DNA of 62,810 nucleotides, counting the filler, from Thermodesulfobacteriota bacterium (lineage in GTDB: Bacteria > DASVDK01): assembly GCA_036381125.1 (NCBI GenBank). It is 4 parts of 4 records of this genome, joined end to end, with 100 filler letters (N's around TTAATTAATTAA, not from the genome) between each part and the next. Parts side by side here need not be neighbours in the genome. Positions count along the whole stretch, not along the records: positions 5,848 to 20,892 come from DASVDK010000118.1; 3 more parts are not named here. One strand, 5' to 3'. Made by a program: the position numbers and the translations under genes. Shown in pieces: positions 5,748 through 48,900 of this stretch. How positions within the stretch are numbered: position 1 is the first letter of the stretch; each line of letters begins with the position of its first letter. The notes beneath the pieces were generated by a model that worked only from the letters and a program-made list of their open reading frames with translations, was not told the DNA's origin and searched no databases.

Positions 5748-5847
5748 NNNNNNNNNNNNNNNNNNNNNNNNNNNNNNNNNNNNNNNNNNNNTTAATTAAT
5801 TAANNNNNNNNNNNNNNNNNNNNNNNNNNNNNNNNNNNNNNNNNNNN
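5748..5847. other. Artificial contig-joining spacer
   Basis: 44 N + TTAATTAATTAA (stops in all six frames) + 44 N. Confidence 0.98.
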
Positions 5848-7182
5848 GACGACGACGACGTCGAGCGTGGCCCCCGGCCGCTTGAGCTTGAGCCAGGCGC
5901 GGCCGCGCGTGCCGGGGAGGTAGGGCGACGAGGGGTCCTTGACCATGAGCCCCTCGTTGCCGCGAGCCCGGGCCTCCTCGAACCGCCGATCGAGGCGGGC
6001 CGCCGCGTCGTCGGCGCGCGTCTCGACCGGGTCGGCCGGGGAGAGGAAGAGCGGCGGCGAGAGCGGCAGCGCGGCCAGGCGCGCCCGCCGGGCCTCGAGC
6101 GGGGCGTCGAGCAGCGACCCGCCGGCGTCGATCAGGCAGTCGAAGGCGACGTAGACGACCGGCACCTCGCGCACGAGCGCCTCGGTCACGGCCTTGCGGC
6201 CGAGGCGCCGCTGGAGCTGACCGAAGGGGAGGGCCCGGCCGTCGCGCCACGCGAGCACCTCGCCGTCCAGGATGAGCGGCCCCGGCAGGCGCGCCAGGGC
6301 GGTCGCGACCTCCGGGAAGCGGCCGGTCACGTCCTCGAGGCGCCGCGAGAAGAGCGCCACGCGACCGTCGGCGCCCACGTGGGCCGTCGTGCGGACGCCG
6401 TCGAGCTTGTCCTCGACGAGCGCCGCGCCGTCGATCCGCCGCAGGGCATCGGCCGCATCGGCCGCCGGCGTGGCGAGCATGACCGACGTGGGCCGGAAGA
6501 GGACCGGGGCCGCCTCGTCGAGCCGGCCCGCCTTCGCGAGACGCGCCGCCTCGCCCACGTCGCCGCCGAGGAGCATCGCCGCGCGCTGGATGGCGGCGAG
6601 CGGCGCGCCGAAGGCGACGCCGAGCGCCTCCTCCACGAGGCGCTGCTTGAGGCCGATCCGGAGGTCGCCCCCCGCGATCTTGAGGAGGTACTTCGCCTCG
6701 GCCGGCGAGGCGCGGTGCAGGAGCGCGCCGAAGCGGGCGGCCCTGGCGCCCGGACCGCGGGCGGCCGCGATCCGGTCGAAGGCGGCGCGGGCGTCGAGCA
6801 GCGCGACGCCGGTCGGCGCCGCGTGCGGGGCTTCGGCCCGCTCCCCCCGGCGGCTCGCCTCGGCGGCGGCGCTCGCCGCCTCCCGGCGTCCGGCGAGCAG
6901 CCGTTCCGCGGCCGAGCCGAGGTCGCCCGTCCTGAGCGTCTCGGCGTCGATGGCGGCGGGGTCGAGCGCGGCGGCGCCGGCCAGGGCGGCCCTGAGACCG
7001 GCGTACCCCAGGCCGAGGCTCCTCGGGTCCCAGGGCGGGAACGGGCGCCCGGCGAGGAAGGTGCAGGCGACCGGCAGCGAGGCGTCGTCGAGCGAGGCGA
7101 GGTAGGCCACGAGCGCCGCCCGCTTGGCCAGGCGGGAGCGCGTGGCGCCCACCGCCTCGCACGCGGCGGCGAAGGCACGCAT
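5848..7182 (-). CDS. lig: ATP-dependent DNA ligase, 3' end truncated by contig break
   Basis: Motif I EDKLDGVR, LFSRRLEDVT, ILDGEV, AFDCL, EGLMVKDP, YLPGTRGRAWLKLKR. Confidence 0.93.
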
Positions 7183-7230
7183 GCGAGAGATTGTAGAGGC
7201 CGGTCGGGCCGTCGCGGGGGCCGGAACGTC

Positions 7231-7259
7231 TTGTCCCGACCGGCGCGATCGGCTAGAGT
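7231..7259 (+). promoter_or_regulatory. Candidate sigma70 promoter of the grd-like operon
   Basis: TTGTCC (7231-7236), 17 nt spacer, TAGAGT (7254-7259), 80 nt upstream of ATG 7339. Confidence 0.5.
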
Positions 7260-7282
7260 GGCCCTGCGTCGCGAGAAAAACG

Positions 7283-7303
7283 GCGTTTCTCTACGAGAAA
7301 CGC
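7283..7303. promoter_or_regulatory. Perfect inverted repeat, candidate IclR operator
   Basis: GCGTTTCTC-TAC-GAGAAACGC between the predicted promoter and first gene; operon encodes an IclR protein. Confidence 0.6.
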
Positions 7304-7338
7304 GTCGGGCCCTCTCGAGGGGCAGGTGGAGGCAGGCG

Positions 7339-8607
7339 ATGCGTCTCGACGTCGCGTCCTTCCCGGTACGACGCGCCGAGCTCGGCGCGCGGACCCGCTA
7401 TGCGGACGGGGTCCTCACGATCGGCGTCGAGGCGGTGCGGTCGCTCGTCCTCCAGGACCCACGCGTTCGCGACGTCCGGCTCGAGGTCGTCCACCCGGGC
7501 GACTCGGCGAGGGTCCTGCGCCCCCTCGACGCGATCGAGCCGCTCCGCAAGGTCGAGGGACCCGGCAGCGCGTTCCCGGGGTTCAACGGCCCGCCCCACA
7601 CCTGCGGGCGCGGCCGGACCCACCGGCTCGAGGGGTTCTCGGTGGTCGAGGTCGCGGAGTTCCCGTTCCCGGCGAGCGGCGTGCAGGCCGTCGAGGAAGG
7701 GATCATCGAGATGACCGGACCCGGGGCCGCCTACGCCGGCTGCGCCGATCGCGTGAACCTGCTCCTCGTCTGCACGCCGGGACCGGCGTCGAGCAACGAC
7801 GACTACGACGACGCGGTCCGGCGCGCGGGGCTTCGGGTCGCCGACCACCTGGCCGGGGCGACGATCGGCCTCGAGCCGGTCCGCGTGGAGCGCTTCGAGC
7901 TCGCCGGCGTGCGGCCCGGCCTGCCCCGGGTGGTCTGGGTCCACCAGGTCAGGAACCAGGGGCCGATGGTGCGCACGTTCCTCTACGGTCACGAGATGGC
8001 GAACCTCGTGCCGACGGTGCTCCACCCGAACGAGCTGCTCGACGGCGCGCTGGTGGGCGCCAACTACAAGACCGGCACCAAGACGCCGACTTACATGCAC
8101 ACCCGCCACCCGTCCCTCGAGTCGCTCTACGCGCGGCACGGGCGGGACCTCGAGTTCGTCGGCGTCGTCGTCTCCCGGGGGCACCACGAGAACGAGTTCC
8201 TCAAGGAGCGCTCCGCGCACTTCGTGGCGAAGCTGGCCGGCATGCTCCGCGCGGACGGGGCGCTCTGCACGTACGAGGCGACGGGGAACACCCACGTGGA
8301 CTTCATGCTGACGGTGCAGGCGCTCGAGCGAGCGGGGATCCGGACCGGGGCGGTCGTGCACGAGTACGGCGGGCCGGAGGGGACCGACGCCCCGCTCGTC
8401 GACTTCGCGCCGGAGGCGATCGCCCTCGCCAGCAGCGGCGGCATCGATCGGCGCATCCGCCTGCCGGCGGTCGAGCGGCTCATCGGCGGGACCCACCTGG
8501 CGCACCGCGGCATCCCGGCCGGGGGGGAGATCGAGGTCAGCATCCAGGAACTGTACGCGGTGACGGCCGAGATGAACCGTCGCGGCGTCGTGGCGCAGGA
8601 ATACTAG
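7339..8607 (+). CDS. Glycine/sarcosine/betaine reductase component B proprotein-type subunit (GrdE/GrdG/GrdI family), lacking the pyruvoyl-forming Cys
   Basis: GGAGG RBS; DAIEPLRKV, GRGRTHRLEG, IIEMTGPGA, TFLYG, PTVLHPNELLDGA, YARHGRDLEFVGVV; 422 aa; directly upstream of grdB-like gene. Confidence 0.88.
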   Translation: MRLDVASFPVRRAELGARTRYADGVLTIGVEAVRSLVLQDPRVRDVRLEVVHPGDSARVLRPLDAIEPLRKVEGPGSAFPGFNGPPHTCGRGRTHRLEGFSVVEVAEFPFPASGVQAVEEGIIEMTGPGAAYAGCADRVNLLLVCTPGPASSNDDYDDAVRRAGLRVADHLAGATIGLEPVRVERFELAGVRPGLPRVVWVHQVRNQGPMVRTFLYGHEMANLVPTVLHPNELLDGALVGANYKTGTKTPTYMHTRHPSLESLYARHGRDLEFVGVVVSRGHHENEFLKERSAHFVAKLAGMLRADGALCTYEATGNTHVDFMLTVQALERAGIRTGAVVHEYGGPEGTDAPLVDFAPEAIALASSGGIDRRIRLPAVERLIGGTHLAHRGIPAGGEIEVSIQELYAVTAEMNRRGVVAQEY

Positions 8608-8609
8608 CG

Positions 8610-9932
8610 ATGCGAGTCGTCCACTACCTCAATCAGTTCTTCGGCGGCATCGGCGGCGAGGACCGGGCCGACGCGCCGCCGCAGGCGCGCGAGGGGGCGG
8701 TCGGGCCGGGGCTCGCGCTCGAGCAGGCGCTCGGCGGCGACGGGCGGGTCGTCGGGACGGTCGTCTGCGGGGACGGGACGTTCGCCGACCGACCCGACGA
8801 GGCGGCGGCGGAGGTCGTGGCCCTCGTCGAGCGGTTCGCCCCCGACGTCGTGGTGGCCGGGCCCGCCTTCAACGCGGGCCGCTACGGCCTCGCCTGCGGG
8901 CGGGTCTGCGTGGAGGTGGAGCGGCGGCTCGGCCGGCCGGCGCTGACGGGGATGTACCACGAGAACGCCGCCGTCGAGCTGTACCGGCGGGACGTCGTGA
9001 TCGTCTCGACCAGCGCCACGGCCGGCGGCATGCGGGCGGCGATCGAGACCATGGCGCGGCTCGCGAGGACGCTCGGGCGAGGGGAGGCGCTCGGGCCGGC
9101 CGCGGTGGAGGGCTACCTTCCGCGCGGCCGCCGGATGAACGGCCGGGCCGGCCGGCCGGCCAGCGCGCGCGCCCTCGACCTGCTGATGGCGCGCCTGGCC
9201 GGTGAGCCGTTCGAGACCGAGGTGCCGCTGCCGACGTACGCGCCGGTCGCCCCGCCGGCGCCGGTGGCCGACCCCGCCGGCATGCGCCTCGCGCTCGTGA
9301 CGGAGTCCGGCCTCGTCCCGCCGGGCAACCCGGATCGGCTCGAGTGGGTGCGGGCGAGCAAGTGGCTCAGGTACAGCCTGGCCGGCAAGGACGACCTCGG
9401 GCGCGGCGAGTTCGAGGTGGTCCACAGCGGCTACGACGCCTCGTTCGCCCTCGACGACCCGGACCGGCTCTTGCCGGTGGACGCGGTCCGCGAACTCGTG
9501 CGCCTGGGGGAGATCGGCTCCCTGCTCGACGCCTATTACGTCACGTGCGGCAACCACGGCATCCTCGGGCAGATGGAGCGGTACGGCCGCGAGATCGCGA
9601 CCGAGCTCCGCGAGCAGAACGTCGACGCCGTGCTCCTCGTCGCCACCTGAGGGTCGGGCACGCGTAGCGGCGCTACGCTCGCGAAGGAGCTGGAGCGGGC
9701 CGGGCTGCCGACCGTCACGGTCACCAGCCTCCCGTCGGTCGCCCTCAAGGTCGGCGCCAATCGGGTCCTGCGCGGCCCTCGGTTCAGCCATCCGTGCGGC
9801 AACCCGGCCCTCGGCGAGCGGGACGAGCGGGCGTGGCGGATCGAGTTCCTGCGTCACGCCGTCCGGGCGCTGGGGACGCCGGTCACCGGTCCGACCCTCT
9901 TCGACCCTACCGGGACCGGGGGGCAGGCATGA
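8610..9932 (+). CDS. grdB: Reductase selenoprotein B (GrdB/GrdF/GrdH family), Sec at codon 347
   Basis: MRVVHYLNQFFGGIGGED, AGPAFNAGRYG, MYHENAA, DPDRLLPVD; in-frame TGA 9648-9650 then GSGTRSGATLAKELERAGLP...VGANRVLRG..FSHPCGNP (conserved GrdB C-terminus) to TGA 9930-9932, overlapping the next ATG. Confidence 0.92.
9662..9678 (+). promoter_or_regulatory. Putative bacterial SECIS of grdB-like gene
   Basis: GCGTAGC-GGC-GCTACGC perfect 7-bp stem beginning after an 11-nt spacer from the UGA; loop starts with G; uses CGT and GCT codons that are uncommon here. Confidence 0.75.
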
Positions 9933-11359
9933 CCTTCCCGGTCGTCACCGCCGTCGCGAACGTGCTCGCCCACGCGCCGGGGCTGGTGCGCTACGGCTCG
10001 AGGCCGGTGCGCGACCTCGCCCGTGATCCCTCGCGTGCCGGGACGCTCGCCGGGCACCTCCGGCCGTACGAGGACGCGGTTGCGTACGGGCCGAACCAGG
10101 CGTACGTCGGCAACCTCGCCCCCGAGGCGCTGCGCGACGTCGCCCGTCCCTGGTTCCGGAGCCTCGACCGGTCGGCGCCGGCCGACGGCGAGTTCGGCAG
10201 CCTGATCGGCGAGGCCGAGCTGCTCGGGCTGCTCAAGCTCTGCGACCGGGCCCAGCTCGTCCAGCTCGACGAGCCGACCCTGGCGGCCGGCGGCGCCCGG
10301 CTGATCGCGAGGCGTCTGGCCGACGCGGACGCGGTCGGGCGCCTTCGGGCGTCGCCGGCCGGCGCCATCGAGCAGGCGATCGAGAGCGGCGAGGCGATTC
10401 CGCTCTGGCTCGGAGGACGGATCGTCGGCGCCGTCGCCCGCGGTCACGAGGAGGACGAGGCGCTCACCGCCAACGTCCTGCTCGAGAACCTTGCGGCCAA
10501 GGCCACGGGCGTCCTGGCGCTCCGGCACCTGCTGCGGCAGGTCGAGCGGCGCCTCGGACCGAACGACATCGACTTCGTCATCGCCGGGTCCGAGGAGGCC
10601 ATCGGCGACCGCTACCAGCGCGGGGGCGGCAACGTCGCCAAGGCGATCGCCGAGGAGGTCGGCCTCGCGCGCGCCACCGGCTTCGACGTGAAGGCCTTCT
10701 GCGCCTCCACGCTCTACGCGGTGGTCAACGCGGCGGCGCTCGTCCAGGCCGGCGTCTTCTCCCGCGTGGCGGTCGTGGCCGGCGGCTCGCTCGCGAAGCT
10801 CGGCATGAAGTATCGGGCCCACGTGGCCAGGGGGATGCCGATCCTCGAGGACGTGCTCGCCGGCATCGCGATCCTCGTCGAGCGGGCCGGCGCCGAGGGC
10901 CCGACCGTCCGCCTCGACACGCTCGGCCTCCACGCAACCGGGGCCGAGTCGTCGCAGCAGGCGGTGGTCGAGGCGCTCGTGATGGGGCCGCTCGCGAAGG
11001 CGGGATGCCGGCTGACCGAGGTGGACCGGTACGCGACGGAGATGCACAACCCGGAGGTCACCGAGCCGTCGGGCAGCGGCGACGTCCCGCTCGGCAACTA
11101 CCGGTTGATCGCCGCCCTCGGCGCCATGCGCGGGGACATCCCGAGGGACGGGATCCACGACTTCATCGCCCGGCACGGCCTGCCGGGCTACGCGCCGACG
11201 CAGGGCCACATCGCCTCGGCCGTCTGCTACCTGGGGCACGCGGTACGGGGCATGCGGGCCGGTCGTCTCGAGCGCGTCCTCTTCATGGCGAAGGGGAGTC
11301 TGTTCCTCGGTCGGATGACGCAACAGTCCGACGGCGTGTCGTTCCTGCTGAGTGCCTGA
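9929..11359 (+). CDS. grdC: Reductase complex component C beta subunit (GrdC, FabH-like fold)
   Basis: LLENLAAKATG, SEEAIGDRYQRGGGNVAKAIAE, FDVKAFCA, AKLGM, EMHNPEVTEPSGSGDVP, APTQGHI, KGSLFLGRMT..SDGVSF; ATGA overlap with grdB. Confidence 0.92.
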   Translation: MTFPVVTAVANVLAHAPGLVRYGSRPVRDLARDPSRAGTLAGHLRPYEDAVAYGPNQAYVGNLAPEALRDVARPWFRSLDRSAPADGEFGSLIGEAELLGLLKLCDRAQLVQLDEPTLAAGGARLIARRLADADAVGRLRASPAGAIEQAIESGEAIPLWLGGRIVGAVARGHEEDEALTANVLLENLAAKATGVLALRHLLRQVERRLGPNDIDFVIAGSEEAIGDRYQRGGGNVAKAIAEEVGLARATGFDVKAFCASTLYAVVNAAALVQAGVFSRVAVVAGGSLAKLGMKYRAHVARGMPILEDVLAGIAILVERAGAEGPTVRLDTLGLHATGAESSQQAVVEALVMGPLAKAGCRLTEVDRYATEMHNPEVTEPSGSGDVPLGNYRLIAALGAMRGDIPRDGIHDFIARHGLPGYAPTQGHIASAVCYLGHAVRGMRAGRLERVLFMAKGSLFLGRMTQQSDGVSFLLSA

Positions 11360-11372
11360 GCCGGAGGAACCC

Positions 11373-11834
11373 ATGGACCTGAAGGGCAAGCGCGTGCTCG
11401 TCATCGGTGAGCGCGACGGCGTGAGCGGGGCGGCGATCGAGAGCTGCGTCCGCAGCGCCGGCGCCGAGGTGGTGTACGTCGAGACCCAGTGCTTCGTCTG
11501 AACGGCGGCGGGCGCCATGGACCTTGAGGGTCAAGGTCGGATCAAGCAACTGGTGGACCGCATCGGCACCGACGGCGTCGTCGCCGTCCTCGGGGCGAAC
11601 TCCCCCGAGGCGGTGGAAATGGTCGCCGCCACGCTGAAGAACGGGGACCCGAGCTACGCGGGCCCGCTGGCCGGGGTCGCGCTCGGCATCCCGTCGTTCC
11701 ACGTCCTCGAGCCGGAGATCACCCGACAGATCGCCCCGGAGGTCTACGAGCGCGAGCTCGCGCTGCCGGCCCTGGCCATGGACGGCGAGGCGGTGACCGC
11801 GCCGGTCAGGGCGATCCGCGAGGGCAGGGCCTGA
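11373..11834 (+). CDS. grdA: Reductase selenoprotein A (GrdA), CxxU motif, Sec at codon 43
   Basis: GGAGG RBS; MDLKGKRVLVIGERDGV...TQCFV[TGA 11499-11501]TAAGAMDLEGQ...GDPSYAGPLAGVALG; canonical CFVUTAAGAMDLE signature; track ORF shows only the post-UGA half. Confidence 0.95.
11520..11538 (+). promoter_or_regulatory. Putative bacterial SECIS of grdA
   Basis: GACCTTGA-GGG-TCAAGGTC perfect 8-bp stem 18 nt after UGA; built from CTT/GGT/CAA/GGT codons atypical of this GC3-rich genome. Confidence 0.78.
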
Positions 11835-11840
11835 CCGCAC

Positions 11841-12686
11841 ATGGCCGCGCGCAAGGCTGCCGAGGCGGCCGCGCCGCTCCGTTCGGTGGACCGCGCCCTC
11901 GCCCTGCTCGAGTGCCTGGCCGGCCTCCCGCAGCCGGTGGCGCTGGGGGACCTCGCGCGCCGGCTCGTGGTGAGCAAGGCGGGGGCCTTCCGGCTCCTCG
12001 CGACGCTCAAGCGCCGGGGCTTCGTCCGCCAGCTCGAGGACGGGCGATACGCCCTGGGCCTCAGGTGCTGGGAGATCGGTTGGGCGGTGCTGGGGGAAGG
12101 CGGCATCCGGGAGGCGGCGGCGCCGATGATGGCGGCGCTGGTCGAGCAGACCGGGGAGTCGATCCACCTGGCCGTCTACGATACGGGCGACGTCGTCTAC
12201 ATCGACAAGCGGGAAGGTTCGCAGCCGGTGCGCGCCTACTCGCACGTCGGCGGCCGCGCGCCGGCCTACTGCGTGGCAACGGGAAAGGTGCTCCTCGCCT
12301 TCGCGGGCGAGGCCGAATGGGAGCGGGTGACGCGAGCCGGGCTGCGGCGCTTCACCCCTCGCACCATCGTCGACCCCGGTGACCTGCGGTCGGAGCTGGC
12401 CGCGGTGGTCGCCCAGGGCTACTCGCTGAACCGCGGCGAGTGGCGGGCGGAGGTCGCGGGGATCGCGGCGCCGATACGGGACTTCACGGGGAGCGTCGTC
12501 GCGGCGATCGGGACCTCCGGGCTGGCGACGCACTACACCGCGGCGCGCATCCGGCAGATGGTCCCGCAGGTGCAGGCGGCCGCGGCCGAGGTCTCGAGTC
12601 GACTCGGGTTCATCAGGAGGCGACAGGAGGGAGGCCATGGAACGGAAGCTCACGACGCTGTCGGACGCGGCCGGGCTCGTCGCTGA
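11841..12686 (+). CDS. IclR-family transcriptional regulator
   Basis: SVDRALALLE HTH, RLLATL..RGFV, TGESIHLAV, VVYIDK, PAYCVATGKVLLAF, GIAAPI; C-terminal tail overlaps next gene by 50 nt. Confidence 0.93.
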   Translation: MAARKAAEAAAPLRSVDRALALLECLAGLPQPVALGDLARRLVVSKAGAFRLLATLKRRGFVRQLEDGRYALGLRCWEIGWAVLGEGGIREAAAPMMAALVEQTGESIHLAVYDTGDVVYIDKREGSQPVRAYSHVGGRAPAYCVATGKVLLAFAGEAEWERVTRAGLRRFTPRTIVDPGDLRSELAAVVAQGYSLNRGEWRAEVAGIAAPIRDFTGSVVAAIGTSGLATHYTAARIRQMVPQVQAAAAEVSSRLGFIRRRQEGGHGTEAHDAVGRGRARR

Positions 12687-13476
12687 CGGGTCGACCATCG
12701 CCTTCGGCGGCAGCCTGCTGCACCGGATCCCGGCAAGCTTCGCGCGCGAGGTGGCCAGGCAGGGGCGGCGCGGTCTCCGGTTCGTCAAGCCGTCGGCGGC
12801 CTACGACCTCGACCTCCTCTGCGCGGCCGGATGCGTCTCGACGGTGGACGCCGGCATCGTCGCCATGGAGGGAGGCTTCGGGCTCGCCCCGAGCTACCGG
12901 GCGGCCGTGGAGAGCGGCCGGGTCACCGTCCACGAGCACGCCTGAATCTCGCTGGTCGCCGGGCTGCGGGCCGCAGCCTTCGGGATCCCGTTCATGCCGG
13001 TCGCCGGGATGCGCGGCAGCGACGTGCCGGCCGCCGGCGGCCTTCGCCTCGCAAAGGACCCCTTCACGGGGGAGGAGGTCTACGCGGCGCCCCGCCTCGA
13101 CCTCGACTGGGCGGTCCTGCACGTCCAGGAGGCCGACCCCCTCGGCAACGCGCGCGTCTACGGCACCCCGTTCTGGGACCGCGTGATGTCGCGGGCGGCC
13201 AAAGGGGTCATCGTGACGGCCGAGCGGATCGTGCCGACCGAGGAGCTGGCGCGGCAGCCCGAGCTGACGCTGGTCCCGGGGATCCTCGTGCGGGCGGTCG
13301 TCCACGCGCCGCACGGCGCCTGGCCGGCGAGCTGCACGCCGTACTACGAGATCGACCGGGCGGGCGTGGCCGCGTACCTCGCCGCCTCGGCCGACCCGGA
13401 GGCGCTCGGACGGCACCTCGAGACGACGGACGAGGCGCTGCGGCGGACGGCCGCGCGCGCGGCGGCGGAACGGTGA
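12637..13476 (+). CDS. Family-I CoA-transferase-like alpha subunit with in-frame UGA (putative Sec103)
   Basis: GGAGG RBS; track ORFs 12637..12945 and 12994..13476 are one frame split only by TGA 12943-12945; read-through gives VHEHA-U-ISLVAGLRAAAFGIPFMPV...DPFTGE...LHVQEADPLGN...VTAERIV...GAWP, a complete 279-aa GctA-like subunit ending in a GTGA overlap. Confidence 0.85.
12961..12979 (+). promoter_or_regulatory. Putative bacterial SECIS of CoA-transferase alpha gene
   Basis: G-GGCTGCG-GGC-CGCAGCC-T: 7-bp perfect stem plus G-U pair, 15 nt after UGA, same GGC loop as the grdB hairpin. Confidence 0.68.
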
Positions 13477-14204
13477 GCGCCGTGGCCGCCGGGACGCCGG
13501 AGACGATGATCTGCGCCATCGCGCGGCTCCTGCGCGACGGCGAGCGGGTGTTCCACGGGGTCGCCTCGGTGATCCCGATGCTCGCCGTGAACCTCGCACG
13601 GAGGGTCCACGCCCCGCGCCTGACCTACATCAACATCGCGGGCGGGATCGACCCCGCGCCGCGCTACCTGCCCGAGTCGAGCACCGACCCCGAGCTCGCG
13701 CGGGGGAGCGCGTCGATCTTCAACAACGAGGACTTCTACGACCTCTGCGCCCGAGGGGGGATCGACGTGGCCTTCCTCGGCGCGACGCAGATGGACGCCC
13801 TGGGACGGACCAACAACAGCGTGATCGGGCCGTACGACCGGCCGAAGGTCCGCCTGCCGGGCGGCGGCGGGGCGGCGGTCGTGCTCCCCACCGCGCGTCG
13901 GGTGATCGTCTGGCGCACGGTCCACACGCCGAAGGTCTTCGTCGAGCGGCTCGACTTCGTGACCGGGGTCGGCAACCTCGACCGCGTGGTGACCCCGCTC
14001 TGCGTCTTCCAGCGGCGGGACGGACGGCTCGCGGTCGAGTCGATCCACCCGGGCCACACGCGCGAGGAGGTGGCGGCCCGGACCGGCTTCGCGCTCGAGA
14101 TCCCGCCCGACGTCCCGACGACCCCGCCCCCGACGGAGGCCGAACTCGCGGCGATCGAGGCGATCGACCCGCGCGGCGTCCGCCGGATCGAGTTCGGATC
14201 GTGA
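13473..14204 (+). CDS. Family-I CoA-transferase-like beta subunit (GctB-like), catalytic Glu apparently absent
   Basis: GTG 13473; IARLLRDGE, ARRVHAP, DVAFLGATQMDALGRTNNSVIG, RLPGGGGA, FVERLDFVT, VVTPLCVF, HPG, TGF, IDPRG. Confidence 0.88.
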   Translation: MSAVAAGTPETMICAIARLLRDGERVFHGVASVIPMLAVNLARRVHAPRLTYINIAGGIDPAPRYLPESSTDPELARGSASIFNNEDFYDLCARGGIDVAFLGATQMDALGRTNNSVIGPYDRPKVRLPGGGGAAVVLPTARRVIVWRTVHTPKVFVERLDFVTGVGNLDRVVTPLCVFQRRDGRLAVESIHPGHTREEVAARTGFALEIPPDVPTTPPPTEAELAAIEAIDPRGVRRIEFGS

Positions 14205-15718
14205 CGCCGACGCTCGGGGAAGCGCTGGCGCGGCAGGCGGCCCGGGCGGATCTGCGCGGCCGCCCCTTCATCCTGACCGACGGGGACGCGATCACCTTCG
14301 GCGACCTCGACCGCCTGGCGGCGCGCGTCGCCGGCCGGCTCGCCGAGGCGGGCGTCCGGCCGGGCGACGTGGTCTCGGCGCTCCTGCCGAACTCGCCGGC
14401 CTTCGTCGTCGACATGTTCGGCGCGTACCGGGCCGGGGCCCGCTTCTGCCCGCTCAACCCGCGCCTGACGCCGACGGAGATCCGCTTCCAGCTCGCGGAC
14501 TCGGGGGCGCGCGTGGTGGTGACCGACGCCGAGCACGCGCCGCTCTTCGCGCGGCTCGCCGCGGAGCTCCCCTCCCTCGCGCACGTCCTGGTCCTGGCCG
14601 ACCGGGAGGACCTCGCGGGGCTGCCCGATCCCCCGGGCGCCGCCCCGTCCGCCGTCGAGGATCCCGACGCGGTCGCGCTCGTGATGTACACGTCGGGGAC
14701 GACCGGCTCGCCCAAGGGGGTGATGCTGTCGCACCGGAACGTCCTCCTGAACGCCTCGCAGGTCATGGAGCGGAGCGAGGTGACGGCGGACGACCGGGTG
14801 CTCCACATCATGCCGCTCTTCCACACCAACGGCATCGTCAACACGACCGTGGGCCCGCTCCTCGCCGGCGCCTCCATCGCGCTCCGGCCGCGCTTCGACC
14901 TCGCCGACTTCTGGCCCGCGGTGGCCCGCTTCCGGCCGACCTACTTCACCGGCGTGCCGACCGTCTACAGCCGCTTGCTCGCCGCGCCCGATCCGGGACT
15001 CGACCGGTCGTCGCTCCGATTCGTCCGCTGCGGGTCGGCGCCGATGCCGGTCGAGCTCCAGGAGCGGGTCGAGGCGTGGCTCGGCGTCCCGGTCGTCATC
15101 AGTTACGGCCTCGCCGAGGGGACCTGCACGAGCACGATGAACCCCGTGTCGGGCCGGCGCAAGGTGGGATCGGTGGGGCTGCCGCTCTCGGGGCAGGAGG
15201 TGAGGATCCACGACGACGCCGGGCGCGAGCTGCCGGCCGGCACGGTGGGCGAGGTCTGCATCCGCGGGGGGACCGTCATGCAGGGGTATCTCAATCGGCC
15301 GGAGGAGACCGCCGCCGTCCTTCGCGACGGCTGGCTCCGGAGCGGCGACCTCGGCTACCTCGACGCCGACGGCTATCTCTTCCTGACCGACCGGAAGAAG
15401 GACATCATCATCCGGGGGGGCGAGAACATCTCGGCGCGGGAGGTCGAGGACGTCCTCTACCGACACCCGGCCGTCCTGGAGGCCGCGGTCGTCGGCGCGC
15501 CCGACCCGGATCTCGGCGAGCAGCCGGTGGCGTGCGTGGTGCCGCGGCCGGGCGCGACCATCGACGCGGGCGAGCTGATCGAGTTCTGCCGCGAGCGGCT
15601 CGCCCGCTTCAAGACGCCGCGTCGCGTCGTCGTCCTCGACGACCTGCCGAAGAACGGCGTCGGCAAGATCGTGAAGGCGGCGCTTCGCGAGCGGGTCGGC
15701 GGGGGGAGCGCGCCGTGA
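14201..15718 (+). CDS. Acyl-CoA synthetase (AMP-forming, ANL superfamily)
   Basis: YTSGTTGSPKG, PLFH, SYGLAE, GWLRSGDLG, DRKKDIIIRGGENI, LPKNGVGK. Confidence 0.95.
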   Translation: MTPTLGEALARQAARADLRGRPFILTDGDAITFGDLDRLAARVAGRLAEAGVRPGDVVSALLPNSPAFVVDMFGAYRAGARFCPLNPRLTPTEIRFQLADSGARVVVTDAEHAPLFARLAAELPSLAHVLVLADREDLAGLPDPPGAAPSAVEDPDAVALVMYTSGTTGSPKGVMLSHRNVLLNASQVMERSEVTADDRVLHIMPLFHTNGIVNTTVGPLLAGASIALRPRFDLADFWPAVARFRPTYFTGVPTVYSRLLAAPDPGLDRSSLRFVRCGSAPMPVELQERVEAWLGVPVVISYGLAEGTCTSTMNPVSGRRKVGSVGLPLSGQEVRIHDDAGRELPAGTVGEVCIRGGTVMQGYLNRPEETAAVLRDGWLRSGDLGYLDADGYLFLTDRKKDIIIRGGENISAREVEDVLYRHPAVLEAAVVGAPDPDLGEQPVACVVPRPGATIDAGELIEFCRERLARFKTPRRVVVLDDLPKNGVGKIVKAALRERVGGGSAP

Positions 15719-16146
15719 CGTACCGCGACTGGTACGGCGCGCTGGCCTTCCTCCTCGCCTCGGCTGCCGTCGTGGCCGGGGCGATCCGACTCGGCGTCGG
15801 CACGCTGCGGGATCCCGGTTCGGGATTCGCGCCGCTCGCGTTCGCGGCGGTGCTCGGGCTCCTCTCCGTCATCCGGCTCGTCGGGACCATCCGCGCGGCG
15901 CCGTACCGGGTCGAGGGCCGGTGGCTGCGGGTGGCGGCGGTCTGCATCCTCCTGCTCGCGTGGGGCCTCGCCGTGCAGACGGTCGGCTACCTGGTCGCCA
16001 CGTTCCTGGTGGCCATAGGCTTCGTGCTGGTCGGCGGCCGCTCCGTCTACGCGGCGCTCGCCTTCGGCGTGGGGGCGGCCCTCGCGGTCGAGTTCGTCTT
16101 CGTGCGCTGGCTCGCGACGCCGCTGCCGCGCGGGACCCTCTTCTAG
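15715..16146 (+). CDS. tctB: Tripartite tricarboxylate transporter small subunit TctB
   Basis: GTG 15715; LGVGTLRDPGSGFAP, four hydrophobic segments, C-terminal WLATPLPRG; directly before tctA. Confidence 0.82.
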   Translation: MTYRDWYGALAFLLASAAVVAGAIRLGVGTLRDPGSGFAPLAFAAVLGLLSVIRLVGTIRAAPYRVEGRWLRVAAVCILLLAWGLAVQTVGYLVATFLVAIGFVLVGGRSVYAALAFGVGAALAVEFVFVRWLATPLPRGTLF

Positions 16147-16149
16147 GCC

Positions 16150-17646
16150 ATGGAGACCCTCGACCTCCTCGCCCAGGGCTTCCAGGTCGCCCTCACGCCG
16201 ACCAACCTGCTCTTCGCGCTCGTCGGCGTCACGGTCGGCACGCTCGTCGGCGTCCTCCCGGGGCTCGGACCCTCCGGCGCGCTCGCCATCCTCCTGCCGA
16301 CGACCTACCAGGCGTCGCCCGTCTCCTCGATCATCATGCTCGCCGGCATCTACCACGGCGCCATGTACGGCGGGTCGACGACCTCGGTCCTCGTGAACAT
16401 CCCGGGCGAGGCCTCCTCGGTGGTGACCTGCCTCGACGGCTACCAGATGGCGCGCCGGGGTCGCGCGGGACCGGCGCTCGGGATGGCCGCGTTCGCGTCG
16501 TTCATCGCCGGCACGCTCTCGCTCGTCGGGCTCATCCTCCTGGCCCCCCCGCTCGCCGCCTTCGCCCTGCGCTTCGGGCCGACGGAGTACTTCGCCCTGA
16601 TGGTCGCCGGGCTGGTGATCCTCTCCTACATGACGCACGGGTCGATGGTGAAGGGGCTCATGATGGCGGCGGCCGGCCTCGTCCTCGGCACGGTCGGCCT
16701 CGACACCATCACCGGGCGTCCCAGGTTCACCTTCGGGCTGACCGAGCTGTCGGACGGGATCGGCTTCCTGCCGATGGCCATGGGGCTCTTCGGGATCGCC
16801 GAGGTCCTGGTCGGCCTCGAAGGGGGAGAGAAGCGAGACGTGTACACCGGAAGGCTGCACGGGCTCCTGCCGACTCGGCGCGACTGGTCGGAGTCGGGCC
16901 TTCCGATCGCGCGCGGCTCGGTGATCGGCTTCCTCCTCGGGATCCTCCCCGGCGGGGGGGCGGTGCTGTCCTCCTTCGTGTCGTACGCGGTCGAGCGGCG
17001 CCTCGCCCGGCGGCCCGAGGAGTTCGGGAAGGGGGCGATCGCCGGGCTGGCCGGACCGGAAGCGGCCAACAACGCCGGCTCGACGGGCGCGTTCATCCCG
17101 ATGCTGTCGCTCGGGATCCCGTCGAACTCGGCGACGGCGATTCTCCTCGGCGCCCTGCTGATCTACGGTGTGCAGCCGGGGCCGCTCCTCATGCGGACGC
17201 ACCCCGACCTCTTCTGGGGGGTCGTCGCGAGCATGTACCTCGGCAACCTGATGCTGCTCATGCTCAACCTTCCGCTCATCGGTCTCTGGGTGCGGCTGTT
17301 GAGGGTGCCGTACGACTATCTCTTCCCGGCGATCCTCCTCTTCTGTCTCGTGGGGGTCTACAGCGTCAACAACAGCACGACCGAAGTCCTGCTCATGGTC
17401 GCGTTCGGCCTCCTCGGCTACCTCCTGCGGAAGGCCGGCTTCGACCCGGCGCCGATGGTGCTGGCGCTCATCCTCGGGCCGATGCTCGAGCTGAACTTCC
17501 GGCAGGCGCTGATCCTGAGTCAGGGTGACCTGACGGCGTTCGTCCGGCACCCGATCGCGGCCGTGTTGCTCCTCGTCGCGGCCGTCCTGCTCGTGCTCCC
17601 GATCGTCCAGGACCTTTCCAGGAAGAAAGGAGACCGTCATGCGTAG
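16150..17646 (+). CDS. tctA: Tripartite tricarboxylate transporter large subunit TctA
   Basis: GTLVGVLPGLG, GAMYGGSTTSVLVNIPGE, DGYQMA, PEAANNA, LSLGIP. Confidence 0.95.
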   Translation: METLDLLAQGFQVALTPTNLLFALVGVTVGTLVGVLPGLGPSGALAILLPTTYQASPVSSIIMLAGIYHGAMYGGSTTSVLVNIPGEASSVVTCLDGYQMARRGRAGPALGMAAFASFIAGTLSLVGLILLAPPLAAFALRFGPTEYFALMVAGLVILSYMTHGSMVKGLMMAAAGLVLGTVGLDTITGRPRFTFGLTELSDGIGFLPMAMGLFGIAEVLVGLEGGEKRDVYTGRLHGLLPTRRDWSESGLPIARGSVIGFLLGILPGGGAVLSSFVSYAVERRLARRPEEFGKGAIAGLAGPEAANNAGSTGAFIPMLSLGIPSNSATAILLGALLIYGVQPGPLLMRTHPDLFWGVVASMYLGNLMLLMLNLPLIGLWVRLLRVPYDYLFPAILLFCLVGVYSVNNSTTEVLLMVAFGLLGYLLRKAGFDPAPMVLALILGPMLELNFRQALILSQGDLTAFVRHPIAAVLLLVAAVLLVLPIVQDLSRKKGDRHA

Positions 17647-18592
17647 GCGCATTGCCCTGCTCGCCGCGGTGCTCGTCGGCTCGCTCGCCGCGACTGCTCG
17701 GGCCGACGACTTCCCGAGCCGAGCGATCACCCTGATCATTCCGACATCGCCGGGCGGCTCGGCCTCGGTGTCGGGGCAGATCATCGCCGAGGCGCTCAAG
17801 CGGGAACTCAAGCAGTCCGTCCTGATCGTGTACAAGCCGGGCGCCGCGCAGGCCCTCGGGACCGAGCAGGTCCTCAAGTCCCGCCCGGACGGCTACACGC
17901 TCGGCTGGACCTTCGAGCCGGACCTCGCCTCCAAGATGGTGGCCGACGGCAAGAGCCTCTCGTTCGGGAAGGGCGACCTGGTGCACCTCGGCGCCGCCGG
18001 CTTCGCGCCCTACTTCCTCTGGGTGAAGGCCGACGCGCCGTGGAAGACGCTCGACGAGCTGGTGGCCGCCGGGAAGCAGAAGGGCATCTCCTACAGCTCG
18101 TCCGGCGTCGCGACGATGGGCCACGTCTACGCGGAGATGTTCGTGCGCCGGGCGGGGATCAAGGCGACGCACGTCCCGTACCAGGGGGGAGGGCCGGCGA
18201 CGACCGCGCTGCTCGGCGGGCACGTCGACATGTCCGTCGGCTCGTACGGCCGCATGAAGCAGTACATGGACTCGAACCTCGTCCGGCCGCTCGCGATCCT
18301 CGTGGACGAGCGGCTGCCCGACCTCGCGGAGGTGCCGACGCTCGAGGAGCGGGGCCTCGACCTTCCCATCCAGGGCCAGATCTACCACCACCTCTTCGGG
18401 CCGAAGGGGATGCCGCCCGCGGTCGTCGAGACGATCACCAGCGCCTTCGAGCGGGCGGTTCGCGACCCGGCGACGCAGCAGGCGCTCGTGAAGGCCGGGT
18501 TCGACGGGCGGTGGCTGTCCGCGAAGGCCACGGAGGAGGCCTGGCTCAAGGACTTCGCCATCGTCGAGGAGGCGCTGTCGCAGATCAAGTAG
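17639..18592 (+). CDS. tctC: TctC/Bug family substrate-binding protein
   Basis: Signal peptide; FPSRAITLIIP.SPGG, KPGA, PDGYTL, HVPYQGGGPA..ALLGGHVD, VPTLEE. Confidence 0.92.
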   Translation: MRRRIALLAAVLVGSLAATARADDFPSRAITLIIPTSPGGSASVSGQIIAEALKRELKQSVLIVYKPGAAQALGTEQVLKSRPDGYTLGWTFEPDLASKMVADGKSLSFGKGDLVHLGAAGFAPYFLWVKADAPWKTLDELVAAGKQKGISYSSSGVATMGHVYAEMFVRRAGIKATHVPYQGGGPATTALLGGHVDMSVGSYGRMKQYMDSNLVRPLAILVDERLPDLAEVPTLEERGLDLPIQGQIYHHLFGPKGMPPAVVETITSAFERAVRDPATQQALVKAGFDGRWLSAKATEEAWLKDFAIVEEALSQIK

Positions 18593-18704
18593 GATCGGGG
18601 CTCCGGCGCGCCCCGCGCGCGCCGGAAGCCGCCCCCGGCGCGGGCCGCCTCGGAGGCGCTACCGGGAGGTCGGGTCGATGGTCCGCGGGCCGGGGAAGCG
18701 CCGG

Positions 18705-18836
18705 AAGTCCGCACCCACGCGATCCGGACGGGCGCCGGTCCCGAGAAGGCGGCCTCGAGCCAGGTCCGGCATCGATCGTGATGCGGCGACCGGAGATCGG
18801 AGGCGTGGAGGAGCACGTTGGCGTCGACAGCGTCAT
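18705..18836 (-). pseudogene. VapC (PIN) toxin remnant, frameshifted and truncated
   Basis: ATG 18836 is one base out of frame with VDANVLLHASDLRSPHHDRCRTWLEAAFSGPAPVRIAW (PIN N-terminus); similarity ends after about 45 codons. Confidence 0.7.
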
Positions 18837-19036
18837 CGCCGCAACGGCCCCTCGATCTGGTCGAGCAGCTCCTCGACGTTGTCGTAGCTCGGACCGGGCC
18901 GCAGCCCGCCGAGGTCACGGGTGCGGACCTCGAATCGGGCGGCCGGCGCCTCGCACCGGGAGGCGAGCCCGAGCCGCAACGCCTCGGCCTTCAGCTTCGC
19001 GGCGACGTCCGGGTCCAGGGTGAGCGTCGTTCGCAC
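18833..19036 (-). pseudogene. VapB-like (RHH) antitoxin, internally shortened
   Basis: GTG 19036: MRTTLTLDPDVAAKLKAEALRLGL...SYDNVEELLDQIEG; stop overlaps vapC ATG; central RHH helix appears missing. Confidence 0.6.
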
Positions 19037-19059
19037 ATCGTGCTGCTTTGTCCGATGCA

Positions 19060-19710
19060 TCACGAAGTCAAGTCGGCCGGGGCGCCGCGCGCCGCCGCCC
19101 GGAGCGCGGCGGTCCTCCGCTTCGCCGCGCGCCGCCAGACGCGGTAGCCGAGGAGCGCCGCCAGGGCGGCGGCGAAGAGGGCCGGCTCGCGCGTGTCGGC
19201 CTTGACGAGGAGGAAGTAATGGACCACGCCGAGGACGGCGGCGGGGTAGACGAGGTAGTGGAGCCGCTGCCAGCGCTTGCCGCCGAGGCGGCGCACCCAG
19301 CCGTCGGTCGAGGTGACCGCGAGCGGCACGAGCATGAGGAACGCCGTCATGCCGACGGTGATGTAGGGGCGCTTGACGATGTCGGCCCCGATGGCGCCCC
19401 AGTCGAAGAAGTGGTCGACGGCCACGTAGTTCGTCACGTGGAGCGCGACGTAGCCGAACGCCACGAGCCCGAGCATGCGGCGCAGCCGGATCGCCCGGTT
19501 CCACCGGGTGAGCTGGCGCAGCGGCGTGACGGCGAGGCTCGCCAGGAGGAGCGCGAGTCCCCACCAGCCGAGGAGCCGCGTGGCCGCCTCTATGGGGTTG
19601 GCCCCGAGCCGGTCGGTGAAGAACCAGTAGACGCCGTGGGCAAGCGGCAGGAGCGCCAGCCCGAAGACGATCGGCCTGACGACCCACCTGAACCGAAGCT
19701 CGGCGGACAC
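19060..19710 (-). CDS. msrQ: Methionine sulfoxide reductase heme subunit
   Basis: LGANPIE, LAVTPLR, RRMLGL..FGY..LH, KRPYITVG, PLAVTST, WQRLHYLVY. Confidence 0.95.
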   Translation of the reverse strand: MSAELRFRWVVRPIVFGLALLPLAHGVYWFFTDRLGANPIEAATRLLGWWGLALLLASLAVTPLRQLTRWNRAIRLRRMLGLVAFGYVALHVTNYVAVDHFFDWGAIGADIVKRPYITVGMTAFLMLVPLAVTSTDGWVRRLGGKRWQRLHYLVYPAAVLGVVHYFLLVKADTREPALFAAALAALLGYRVWRRAAKRRTAALRAAARGAPADLTS

Positions 19711-19712
19711 CG

Positions 19713-20675
19713 CTAGTAGTACGTCCTGAGGTCCATGCCGGCGTAGAGGCTCGCGACCTGCTCGGCGTACCCGTTGAAGGGGAGCGTGTCGCGCCGCCGG
19801 AACTCGCCGATGCGCCGCTCCGTCTTCTGGCTCCAGCGGGGGTGGTCCACCTCCGGGTTCACGTTCGAGTAGAAGCCGTACTCCGAGGGCTGGGCGGCGT
19901 TCCACGCCGTGGGCGGCATCCGCTCGACGAGCCGGATCCTCACGATCGACTTGATGCTCTTGAAGCCGTACTTCCACGGGACGACGAGCCGGATCGGCGC
20001 GCCGTTCTGGTTCGGCAGCTCCTTCCCGTAGAGGCCGACGGCGAGGATCGTGAGCGGGTGCATGGCCTCGTCGATCCGAAGCCCCTCGCGGTACGGCCAG
20101 TCGAGGATCCGCCGGCGCTGCCCCGGCATCTGCTCCGGGTCGTGGAGCGTCTCGAACGCGACGAACTTCGCGCGCGAGGTCGGCTCGAACCGCTCGAGCG
20201 CCTTGCCGAGCGGGAAGCCGATCCAGGGGACGACCATCGACCAGGCCTCGACGCAGCGCAGGCGGTAGATCCGCTCCTCGAGGGGGTGCGGCTTGACGAA
20301 GTCCTCGTAGGCGACGACGCCGGGCTTCGCCACCTCGCCCTCCACGGCGATCGACCAGGGCCTGACCCGGAGCGACCCCGCGTACCGCTTCGGATCCTCC
20401 TTGTCGGTGCCGAACTCGTAGAAGTTGTTGTACGAGCTGATCGCGTCGAACGAGGTCAGCGGCTCGTCGGTGGAGAGCGGGCTCCTGGTGAAGGCGAGCG
20501 TCCGGAGGGGGCGCGCCGGCTCGGCCGCGGTGGCGCCGCTCCCGTCGCGCGAGCAGCCGACGGCCGCCGCGGCGAACGCGAAGAGGCCGGTCTTGATGAA
20601 GCGGCGCCGCGCCGCGTAGACGCCCTCGGGCGTGATCTCGGACGAGGGGCTATCCGGCGGTCGCCTGATCAGCAT
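19713..20675 (-). CDS. msrP: Methionine sulfoxide reductase molybdo-catalytic subunit
   Basis: SEITPE..Y..RRRFIK Tat signal, [60 protein letters not shown] before ATG 20675. Confidence 0.96.
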
Positions 20676-20892
20676 GTGGCCTCCACTCACGGTCCCGGGA
20701 CCGATGCTCTGTGTCCCCTCGATACTACCAACCGCGGCCGCGATGCAAGCGCGAGACGGAGCGCGCCGTAACGCGGATCACCGCTCGGCCTGCTCGCCGG
20801 GAAGGCGCGCCTCCCCGCCACCCGCGCCGCCGGCCGGGCGGCGATCGGCAAAGGTCAGATGGCCCAAACCAGGTTCTGAGATAGACGAGCGC

Positions 20893-20992
20893 NNNNNNNN
20901 NNNNNNNNNNNNNNNNNNNNNNNNNNNNNNNNNNNNTTAATTAATTAANNNNNNNNNNNNNNNNNNNNNNNNNNNNNNNNNNNNNNNNNNNN
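20893..20992. other. Artificial contig-joining spacer
   Basis: N44-TTAATTAATTAA-N44. Confidence 0.98.
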
Positions 20993-48800: not shown

Positions 48801-48900
48801 NNNNNNNNNNNNNNNNNNNNNNNNNNNNNNNNNNNNNNNNNNNNTTAATTAATTAANNNNNNNNNNNNNNNNNNNNNNNNNNNNNNNNNNNNNNNNNNNN
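48801..48900. other. Artificial contig-joining spacer
   Basis: N44-TTAATTAATTAA-N44. Confidence 0.98.

Follow-up and report, generated by a model that had tools for sequence, protein, structure and literature searches.

What does an enzyme of the coenzyme A (CoA)-transferase fold do when its catalytic glutamate is missing? We consider this question for a pair of genes in a stretch of DNA from a Thermodesulfobacteriota bacterium (assembly GCA_036381125.1). The whole stretch, referred to here as the window, is 62,810 nucleotides long; all positions are counted along it, and the record that carries the locus fills positions 5848-20892. The first gene (12637..13476, + strand) gives an alpha subunit of 279 residues when it is translated through one in-frame TGA. 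The second (13473..14204, + strand) encodes a beta subunit of 243 residues without the catalytic Glu, and its GTG start and the alpha stop overlap in GTGA. Judged from the sequences and from predicted models, the two genes appear to be translationally coupled and their products to form a heterodimer of the class I (GctAB-type) CoA-transferase fold. The answer that we consider probable is a Glu-less enzyme of this fold that acts on acyl-CoA and carries its catalytic cysteine or selenocysteine (Sec) on the alpha subunit.

The missing glutamate of the beta subunit

We begin with the fold. Both subunits match the Pfam family PF01144 (CoA_trans) well above its cut-off of 23 bits (alpha: 74.6 bits, 9.5e-21; beta: 77.6 bits, 1.2e-21). 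The NCBIfam models for subunits A and B of 3-oxoacid CoA-transferase score far below their own cut-offs (TIGR02429: 37.4 vs 128.5 bits; TIGR02428: 45.2 vs 243.55 bits), and no NCBIfam model covers the glutamate-less family. Among solved structures, the best match of alpha is GctA of the Acidaminococcus fermentans glutaconate CoA-transferase (PDB accession code: 1poi; E 1e-32, template modelling (TM) score 0.87), followed by AibA (1.8e-28) and IpdA (1.3e-26). For beta, phmmer gives AibB (5mzw_D, E 2.4e-32), GctB (1poi_B, 2e-17) and IpdB (6co6_B, 1.8e-12). The AlphaFold models have a mean predicted local distance difference test (pLDDT) score of 93.7 for alpha and 83.9 for beta, and Foldseek places the alpha model at TM 0.84-0.88 to 1poi_A, 6con_A and 5mzw. 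GctAB thus shares the architecture and the fold of the pair and is the source of the names in databases, where the relatives are called 'glutaconate CoA-transferase subunit A/B'. It differs at two residues: GctB has the nucleophile Glu54 (in ESG) and GctA has Gln, while our pair has Ile and Sec.

The sequence-only reading had placed an Ile at the site of GctB Glu54, and two independent alignments confirm it. The residue is Ile55 (codon ATC, 13635..13637, + strand), which lies within beta residues 42-60 (ARRVHAPRLTYINIAGGID, as translated from the open reading frame, ORF). In the gap-free phmmer alignment it stands opposite the single AibB residue that differs among the entries 5mzw, 5n00, 5n01, 5n02 and 5n03 (C/A/N/S/V). 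This residue is Cys56B of AibA/AibB, which replaces the conserved catalytic Glu of glutaconate CoA-transferases and of which Ala, Ser, Asn and Val variants were made (excerpt of PMC7756340). Glu54-beta of glutaconate CoA-transferase, in turn, forms an anhydride with CoA and has been equated with Gly57-beta of IpdAB (excerpt of PMC5380842). The column of Ile55 is therefore that of GctB Glu54, AibB Cys56 and IpdB Gly57. The second alignment uses a GctB orthologue from our genomic set (L097), which matches 1poi_B with E 3.7e-134. Its 'IVESGLMD' corresponds to chain residues 49-56 with the E at residue 52, and hmmalign to the family profile puts this E in the Ile55 column. Chain residue 52 of 1poi_B would be Glu54 in native numbering, provided that the chain lacks two N-terminal residues. 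In the beta model, Ile55 comes immediately after strand 51-54, the place at which the catalytic Glu sits in the CoA-transferase fold.

Is the Ile a peculiarity of this one gene? We scored 8000 candidates in each family search and obtained 2208 beta and 1032 alpha matches at E <= 1e-10. The beta alignment contains the query and the best 120 of the 2208 relatives (60-91% identity), 121 sequences in all. A second, genomic set was drawn from species-representative genomes, in which 199 stretches encode a relative; 80 loci were kept, which with the window makes 81. In the aligned sequences position 55 is I (100) or V (21), and in the genomic copies it is likewise I (78) or V (3), so that neither Glu nor Asp occupies it in any of the 202 family members examined. 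Positions 54-56 hold no acidic residue in these family members except in two Sec-type loci (L079 and L080). There the beta gene (9989-10693) has Glu54 in LIEVAGS, one residue before the nucleophile column; partial reversion is one possible reading, a different active site another. As the whole family shares the feature, Ile55 is more than a chance observation, and with Ile at the beta nucleophile site the classical glutamyl-CoA ping-pong mechanism should not be open to this enzyme. Sequence evidence, within its limits, supports the claim that the dimer falls outside the classical CoA-transferases.

Could another carboxylate have taken over? One candidate had been named in advance, the Glu of LPESS (E68). 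It is kept in only 22 of the 121 aligned sequences, and we reject it as the substitute nucleophile. D60 is kept in 89 (with N in 22) and D72 in 104, and beta has an invariant, family-specific E24 at the start of strand 25-28 of the model, a strand end that we infer to face away from the active site. Among the 121 sequences, no conserved substitute carboxylate was found in beta. These residues bear on the explanation that the pair is still a CoA-transferase, working through another carboxylate (beta Asp60, Asp72 or Glu24, or alpha Glu100) or through a ternary complex without covalent enzyme-CoA. The whole fold and many CoA-transferase motifs are kept, and the relatives are annotated as glutaconate CoA-transferase, as this explanation would have it. 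We consider it very improbable: D60 and D72 are not invariant, D60 is also found in GctB and AibB, and further evidence against it comes from the comparison of the two subunits below.

Codon 103 of the alpha subunit

We turn our attention to the alpha subunit, whose codon 103 is the TGA (12943..12945, + strand). Read as Sec103, it would complete the motif E100-H101-A102-U103 and fall in a conserved Cys/TGA column. The alpha homologue set comprises the best 120 relatives (51-62% identity), of which 117 are full-length and 3 are C-terminal fragments; all 117 have Cys in column 103, in the motif E-H-A-C. In the genomic set, the alpha gene is found upstream of beta in 73 of the 80 loci, and the window brings the number of alpha copies to 74. 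The column is Cys in 61 of these and TGA in 13. The 12 TGA codons outside the window come from several phyla, and none of these frames contains another stop.

The TGA is followed by a hairpin that resembles a selenocysteine insertion sequence (SECIS) element (12962..12978, + strand). It starts 20 nt from the U of the UGA and spans +20 to +36, with the stem GGCUGCG (12962-12968), the loop GGC and the stem CGCAGCC (12972-12978). A perfect 7-bp stem with the GGC loop is present in all 13 TGA genes and in none of the 61 Cys genes, where the mean is 4.7 pairs. When the 13 TGA genes are aligned, 84 of 84 cells are paired. One pair changes from C-G to A-U in three sequences, a compensatory change that alters the protein as well (Leu to Met and Ala to Ser), and three pairs vary by wobble changes. 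The 71-nt stretch after the TGA, folded alone, is no better than its shuffles (z = 1.12), and it is the comparison of TGA genes with Cys genes that is decisive.

A further line of evidence comes from proteins that stop short. With alpha residues 1-102 as the query, 222 short proteins are found at E <= 1e-8. Among the best 120 of them, 115 stop exactly one residue before codon 103, 105 ending in E[HNS][ASTV] and 10 in EFS, EYT or EQA. The Sec form would thus be common in metagenomes and routinely miscalled as a truncated gene, because so many of the short proteins end at this point. Sec forms are called as two truncated ORFs, and therefore a whole selenoprotein family goes unseen. The genome itself encodes SelB and SelA, which exceed their cut-offs with 339 and 577 bits, respectively. 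In a FastTree tree of alpha and beta with 72 rows, a single group with support 100 unites 12 of the 13 Sec rows, and the remaining one (L074) lies inside the Cys group on a long branch.

The same data address the explanation that a nonsense mutation or an assembly error disrupts alpha, which would make the pair a decaying pseudogene and the missing Glu meaningless. Genetic code table 11 does split the alpha frame into 12637-12945 and 12994-13476, and a tRNA-Sec was not detected (see below). We find this explanation barely credible, since the codon is TGA in 12 other genomes, at least 115 short-protein clusters end exactly there, a TGA-specific hairpin follows, the genome has genes for SelA, SelB and selenoproteins of the Grd type, and the beta Ile is common to all Cys-type relatives. 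These comparisons support TGA codon 103 as a genuine Sec/Cys site that is conserved and has a hairpin of its own. No description of a selenocysteine-containing protein of the CoA-transferase fold was found in the literature searches made.

The next question is "where would residue 103 stand in the enzyme?" In the column of residue 103, GctA has Gln and AibA has Gly. Gln99 of pig SCOT, which a paper places among the residues that surround bound CoA, is a candidate equivalent of residue 103 and carries no weight in our argument. The IpdA of Rhodococcus jostii RHA1 has E in this column in one structure (6co6_A) and A in another (6coj_A). The title of the latter entry reads 'IpdAB E105A COCHEA-COA complex', and hence the column is that of IpdA Glu105. 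According to Crowe et al. 2018, Glu105 is reportedly the catalytic base of IpdAB. In the alpha model, residue 103 opens helix 103-115 right after strand 97-100, and a helix N-terminus after a strand is a typical setting of reactive cysteines and selenocysteines. None of the PDB matches of alpha has Cys at this site. We propose residue 103 as the new catalytic residue, because an invariant Cys/Sec, the IpdA Glu105 column, the predicted helix N-terminus and a recoding hairpin maintained by selection all point to it.

Covariation of the two subunits and the repurposed relatives

The residues at the two sites can be compared across paralogues and fusions. In the genome of the window there are four PF01144 pairs, with alpha U/beta I, alpha C/beta I, alpha H/beta E and alpha H/beta E. 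The Cys paralogue lies on another contig (C59:6136-7517, covered by loci L107 and L112) and has EHAC in alpha and NIPGG in beta. The two classical pairs (contigs C358 and C368) have the beta E in FEGG and YESG, each with alpha H. A GctAB orthologue combines alpha Q with beta E.

An exhaustive search of 1.84 billion representatives returned 2514 alpha relatives at E <= 0.001, from which 149 newly listed proteins were taken and one (P0266) was left out. Column 103 could be read in 141 of the 149 and holds E in 57, C in 32, N in 19, G in 11, H in 6, A in 4, V in 3, D and Q in 2 each, and T, M, I, Y and S in 1 each. The alpha-Glu types (57 of the 141 representatives) are separate relatives at 33-50% identity. 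Eleven of the listed proteins are at least 420 residues long, and nine of these carry both domains as natural single-chain alpha-beta fusions. Fusions of 540-600 residues occur among the distant relatives (P0381-P0506), where the covariation can be followed within one polypeptide. The three fusions with alpha N, N and H all have beta E. The six with alpha C, E, E, E, T and G have beta A, G, G, S, F and Y, and none has Glu.

Thus the check that the sequence-only reading had called for, covariation of beta-Glu with the alpha residue, comes out positive across paralogues and fusions. Wherever beta retains its Glu, the alpha side chain is an amide or imidazole (Gln, Asn or His). This holds without exception in a sample that is small and uncorrected for relatedness. 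The rule provides a simple sequence test that separates true transferases from repurposed ones. It also speaks against a retained CoA transfer: beta-Glu is present whenever alpha is Q, N or H and is otherwise absent. The same reading had linked the loss of beta-Glu in this gene to a gain of alpha-Sec. The link itself holds, as seen in the conserved Sec/Cys site, the hairpin and the IpdA Glu105 column. A joint event of loss and gain in this gene does not, because the family, well over 1000 proteins, combines the absence of beta-Glu with an invariant alpha Cys, and Sec takes the place of this Cys mainly in one clade. The "new chemistry" to which the combination was said to point is an inference.

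Glu-less members of the fold are already known, as the same reading had noted: IpdAB and AibAB (excerpts of PMC5380842 and PMC7756340). In both, the chemistry takes place on the acyl portion of the CoA thioester. IpdAB (Rhodococcus jostii RHA1 and Mycobacterium tuberculosis; PDB accession codes: 6co6, 6co9, 6coj, 6con) is the ring-cleaving hydrolase of COCHEA-CoA. Like our pair, it consists of two subunits of the class I CoA-transferase fold (TM 0.87 for alpha), its beta lacks the catalytic Glu (Gly57-beta; here Ile55), its functional residue lies on alpha in the same column (Glu105; here Sec103), and it is linked to an acyl-CoA ligase step. It differs in having Glu on alpha where our family has Cys or Sec and Gly on beta where we find Ile, and the identity is only about 31-33%. 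A thiolate or selenolate differs from a carboxylate that activates water, which suggests covalent or base chemistry for the pair. IpdAB, also without the beta-Glu, did not transfer CoA (excerpt of PMC5380842), a precedent that again disfavors a CoA-transferase. An ATP-dependent ligase adjoins the pair, and therefore a transferase is unnecessary for activation.

AibA/AibB (5mzw-5n03), the 3-methylglutaconyl-CoA decarboxylase of Myxococcus xanthus, is the second precedent. AibB is the closest solved relative of beta, AibA shares E100-H101 of the alpha motif, and the enzyme, with its catalytic Glu replaced, is a non-transferase acting on acyl-CoA (excerpt of PMC7756340). In its pocket AibB has Cys56 and Glu72 where beta has Ile55 and, probably, Thr71. 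AibA has Gly in the place of Sec103, and therefore the thiol is on the other subunit.

From these comparisons, the name glutaconate CoA-transferase is almost certainly wrong for the family. Metabolic reconstructions of Chloroflexota, Thermomicrobiales and Methylomirabilota inherit this misnaming.

Candidate chemistry and the gene neighbourhood

On the + strand of the window the genes follow the order iclR, alpha, beta, AMP (adenosine monophosphate)-forming acyl-CoA ligase, TctA and TctC. The ligase (14201..15718, + strand; Pfam AMP-binding 4.1e-96 and AMP-binding_C) has a GTG start that overlaps the beta stop, and it scores 478.9 bits against the NCBIfam model PRK06187 (cut-off 476). TctA (16150-17646, + strand; Pfam TctA 6.2e-163) and TctC (17639-18592, + strand; Pfam TctC 5.6e-44) belong to an uptake system of the tripartite tricarboxylate type, and a small ORF just upstream of them is in the position of TctB.

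In the mechanism that we propose, a carboxylic acid would enter the cell, for which the Tct system is a plausible route here, and the adjacent AMP-forming ligase would turn it into its CoA thioester, the presumed substrate of the pair. The alpha-beta enzyme would bind this acyl-CoA in the conserved CoA site, where the selenolate or thiolate of residue 103 would attack the acyl moiety as a nucleophile or serve as a base. The outcome would be a covalent Se or S adduct or a carbanion that leads to C-C cleavage, isomerisation or acyl transfer, and not to CoA transfer between acids. Alternatively, the outcome could be a decarboxylation with residue 103 as the proton donor. The catalytic centre would have shifted from beta to alpha, with Sec inserted at the UGA with the aid of the hairpin. 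A more specific version is tentative: a large family may have moved catalysis to an alpha Cys and one clade of it, to which this gene belongs, to Sec, with selenium as an acyl nucleophile (acyl-selenoester or Se-C adduct) in a non-redox, thiolase- or isomerase-like chemistry. Should selenium have such an acyl-directed role, as nucleophile or base, it would extend what selenoenzymes are known to do. Natural Cys forms, including that of the cultured Ktedonosporobacter rubrisoli (L011), make the question directly testable.

The transporter and the ligase are also compatible with an AibAB-like, cofactor-free decarboxylase of a dicarboxylyl-CoA, in which Tct would import the acid, the ligase would activate it at one carboxyl, and Cys or Sec would be the proton donor to the enolate or a spectator. 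The closeness of AibB to beta and the E-H that AibA shares with E-H-A-U agree with this, as does the presence of a Tct-type carboxylate transporter and a ligase in the same operon. According to quantum-chemical calculations, protonation of the enolate by a Cys in the same pocket is feasible (excerpt of PMC7756340). We nevertheless think such a decarboxylase unlikely. Both residues implicated in AibB catalysis appear to be absent: Cys56B is replaced by Ile55, and Glu72B, the proposed proton source, probably by Thr71. Here phmmer places Thr71 in the Glu72 column, next to Asp72 and close to a gap of one residue; 97 of the 121 beta sequences keep T71 (D72 as given above). A selenol is mostly deprotonated at neutral pH and is therefore a poor general acid, which makes a change from Cys to Sec hard to explain. 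Neighbours of the aib type were not seen in the neighbourhoods scanned.

What do the neighbourhoods of the other loci offer? At least 2.5 kb is available on both sides of the pair in only 52 of the 81 loci. An acyl-CoA ligase is found at most 1.5 kb from the pair in 34 of the 81, namely in 33 Cys-type loci and in the window. In 19 loci of the Thermomicrobiales type (e.g., L049:7432-12206), the order is a divergent ligase, alpha, beta, a gene of the class II aldolase/adducin family and AsnC; no more than about 30 nt separate the beta stop from the start of the aldolase gene, which the AsnC regulator follows. The NCBIfam names for the ligases, the aldolase and the aminotransferase are generic or sub-threshold and give no clue to the substrate. 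Apart from generic ligases, the steroid set (ipdC, ipdF, echA20 and fadD3; KstR2 regulon) was not seen in the window, 11 Sec-type and 20 Cys-type loci. An all-against-all comparison of neighbours gave lineage-bound synteny only, and no conserved operon of the Sec clade was found.

Two Cys-type loci (L064:6729-10708 and L067:5080-9055) have a gene for a DsbH-like thioredoxin-domain protein and a thioredoxin-reductase-like gene directly upstream on the same strand, and a Sec-type locus (L079) has a DsbH-like gene nearby. The redox genes upstream in the first two are hints of a thiol-redox link. They invite the explanation that the pair is a thiol or selenol redox enzyme acting on a CoA-linked disulfide or persulfide through a transient Se-S or S-S bond, which a Cys or a thioredoxin system would resolve. 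Sec/Cys pairs are typical of redox sites (established knowledge; excerpt of PMC1794560), residue 103 sits at a predicted helix N-terminus, and a family-specific beta Cys177 is kept in 110 of the 121 sequences. We judge this explanation to be quite improbable: the redox neighbours appear in only 3 of the 81 loci, the commonest neighbour is the acyl-CoA ligase, and no second Cys is invariant.

Several points weigh against the proposed nucleophile or base on alpha. The thioredoxin-like neighbours, few as they are, count among them. To our knowledge, almost all known selenoenzymes are oxidoreductases, and therefore a role of Sec as a nucleophile or base on acyl-CoA has little precedent. The placement of residue 103 in the active site comes from the alignment to IpdA and from the literature. 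The residue that stands at the former Glu site of AibAB tolerates mutation with activity retained (excerpt of PMC7756340), and therefore conservation of a pocket residue does not make it the catalyst. Within the Cys clade the ligases share 64-87% identity, whereas that of the window is only 36-40% identical to them; in the 12 Sec-type loci scanned, nothing is conserved beyond the pair, and a ligase is adjacent only in the window. Three loci (L020, L040 and L058) have room upstream of beta yet no alpha on that strand. In one of them, the upstream ORF (L040:8827-10723) resembles, as judged by eye, a cysteine-synthase-like protein dependent on pyridoxal phosphate. Finally, a tRNA-Sec was not detected by ARAGORN in the whole genome, by the Rfam model RF01852, or by Rfam beside selB, in an assembly that is 96% complete. 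The best RF01852 match scores 46.4 bits against a gathering score of 47 and is a tRNA-Ser according to ARAGORN. The assembly is in 382 contigs, and therefore the negative result does not show that the genome lacks a tRNA-Sec. The gene could be unassembled or unusual in shape, and non-canonical forms of tRNA-Sec are reported (excerpt of PMC5389517).

The remaining genes of the record are as follows. Upstream of the pair is a regulator of the IclR family (11841..12686, + strand; Pfam IclR_C 3.5e-44, HTH_IclR 2.4e-15), whose 3' end overlaps the start of alpha by 50 nt; the same gene order is found in the nearest relative (L005). Further upstream, a glycine/sarcosine/betaine-reductase-like cluster occupies 7339-11834, in an organism of 73% G+C. 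It contains a GrdE/GrdG-like proprotein (7339-8607), a GrdB-family selenoprotein with an in-frame TGA at 9648-9650 (LLVATUGSG), GrdC (the beta subunit of component C, 554 bits) and GrdA with an in-frame TGA at 11499-11501 (CFVUTAAG); no GrdD (the alpha subunit of component C) is seen between GrdC and GrdA in this cluster. The Grd genes were considered as general functional partners and rejected, as among the 12 Sec-type loci scanned they are next to the pair in just two, the window and its near relative L005. The runs of N at 5748-5847, 20893-20992 and 48801-48900 join contigs of one assembly (C117, C118, C120 and C121; the pair is on C118), and genes across these runs are not established neighbours. 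At the end of the contig, on the - strand (19716-20690), lies a gene for the catalytic subunit of an MsrP-type molybdopterin protein-methionine-sulfoxide reductase (NF003767, 477 bits).

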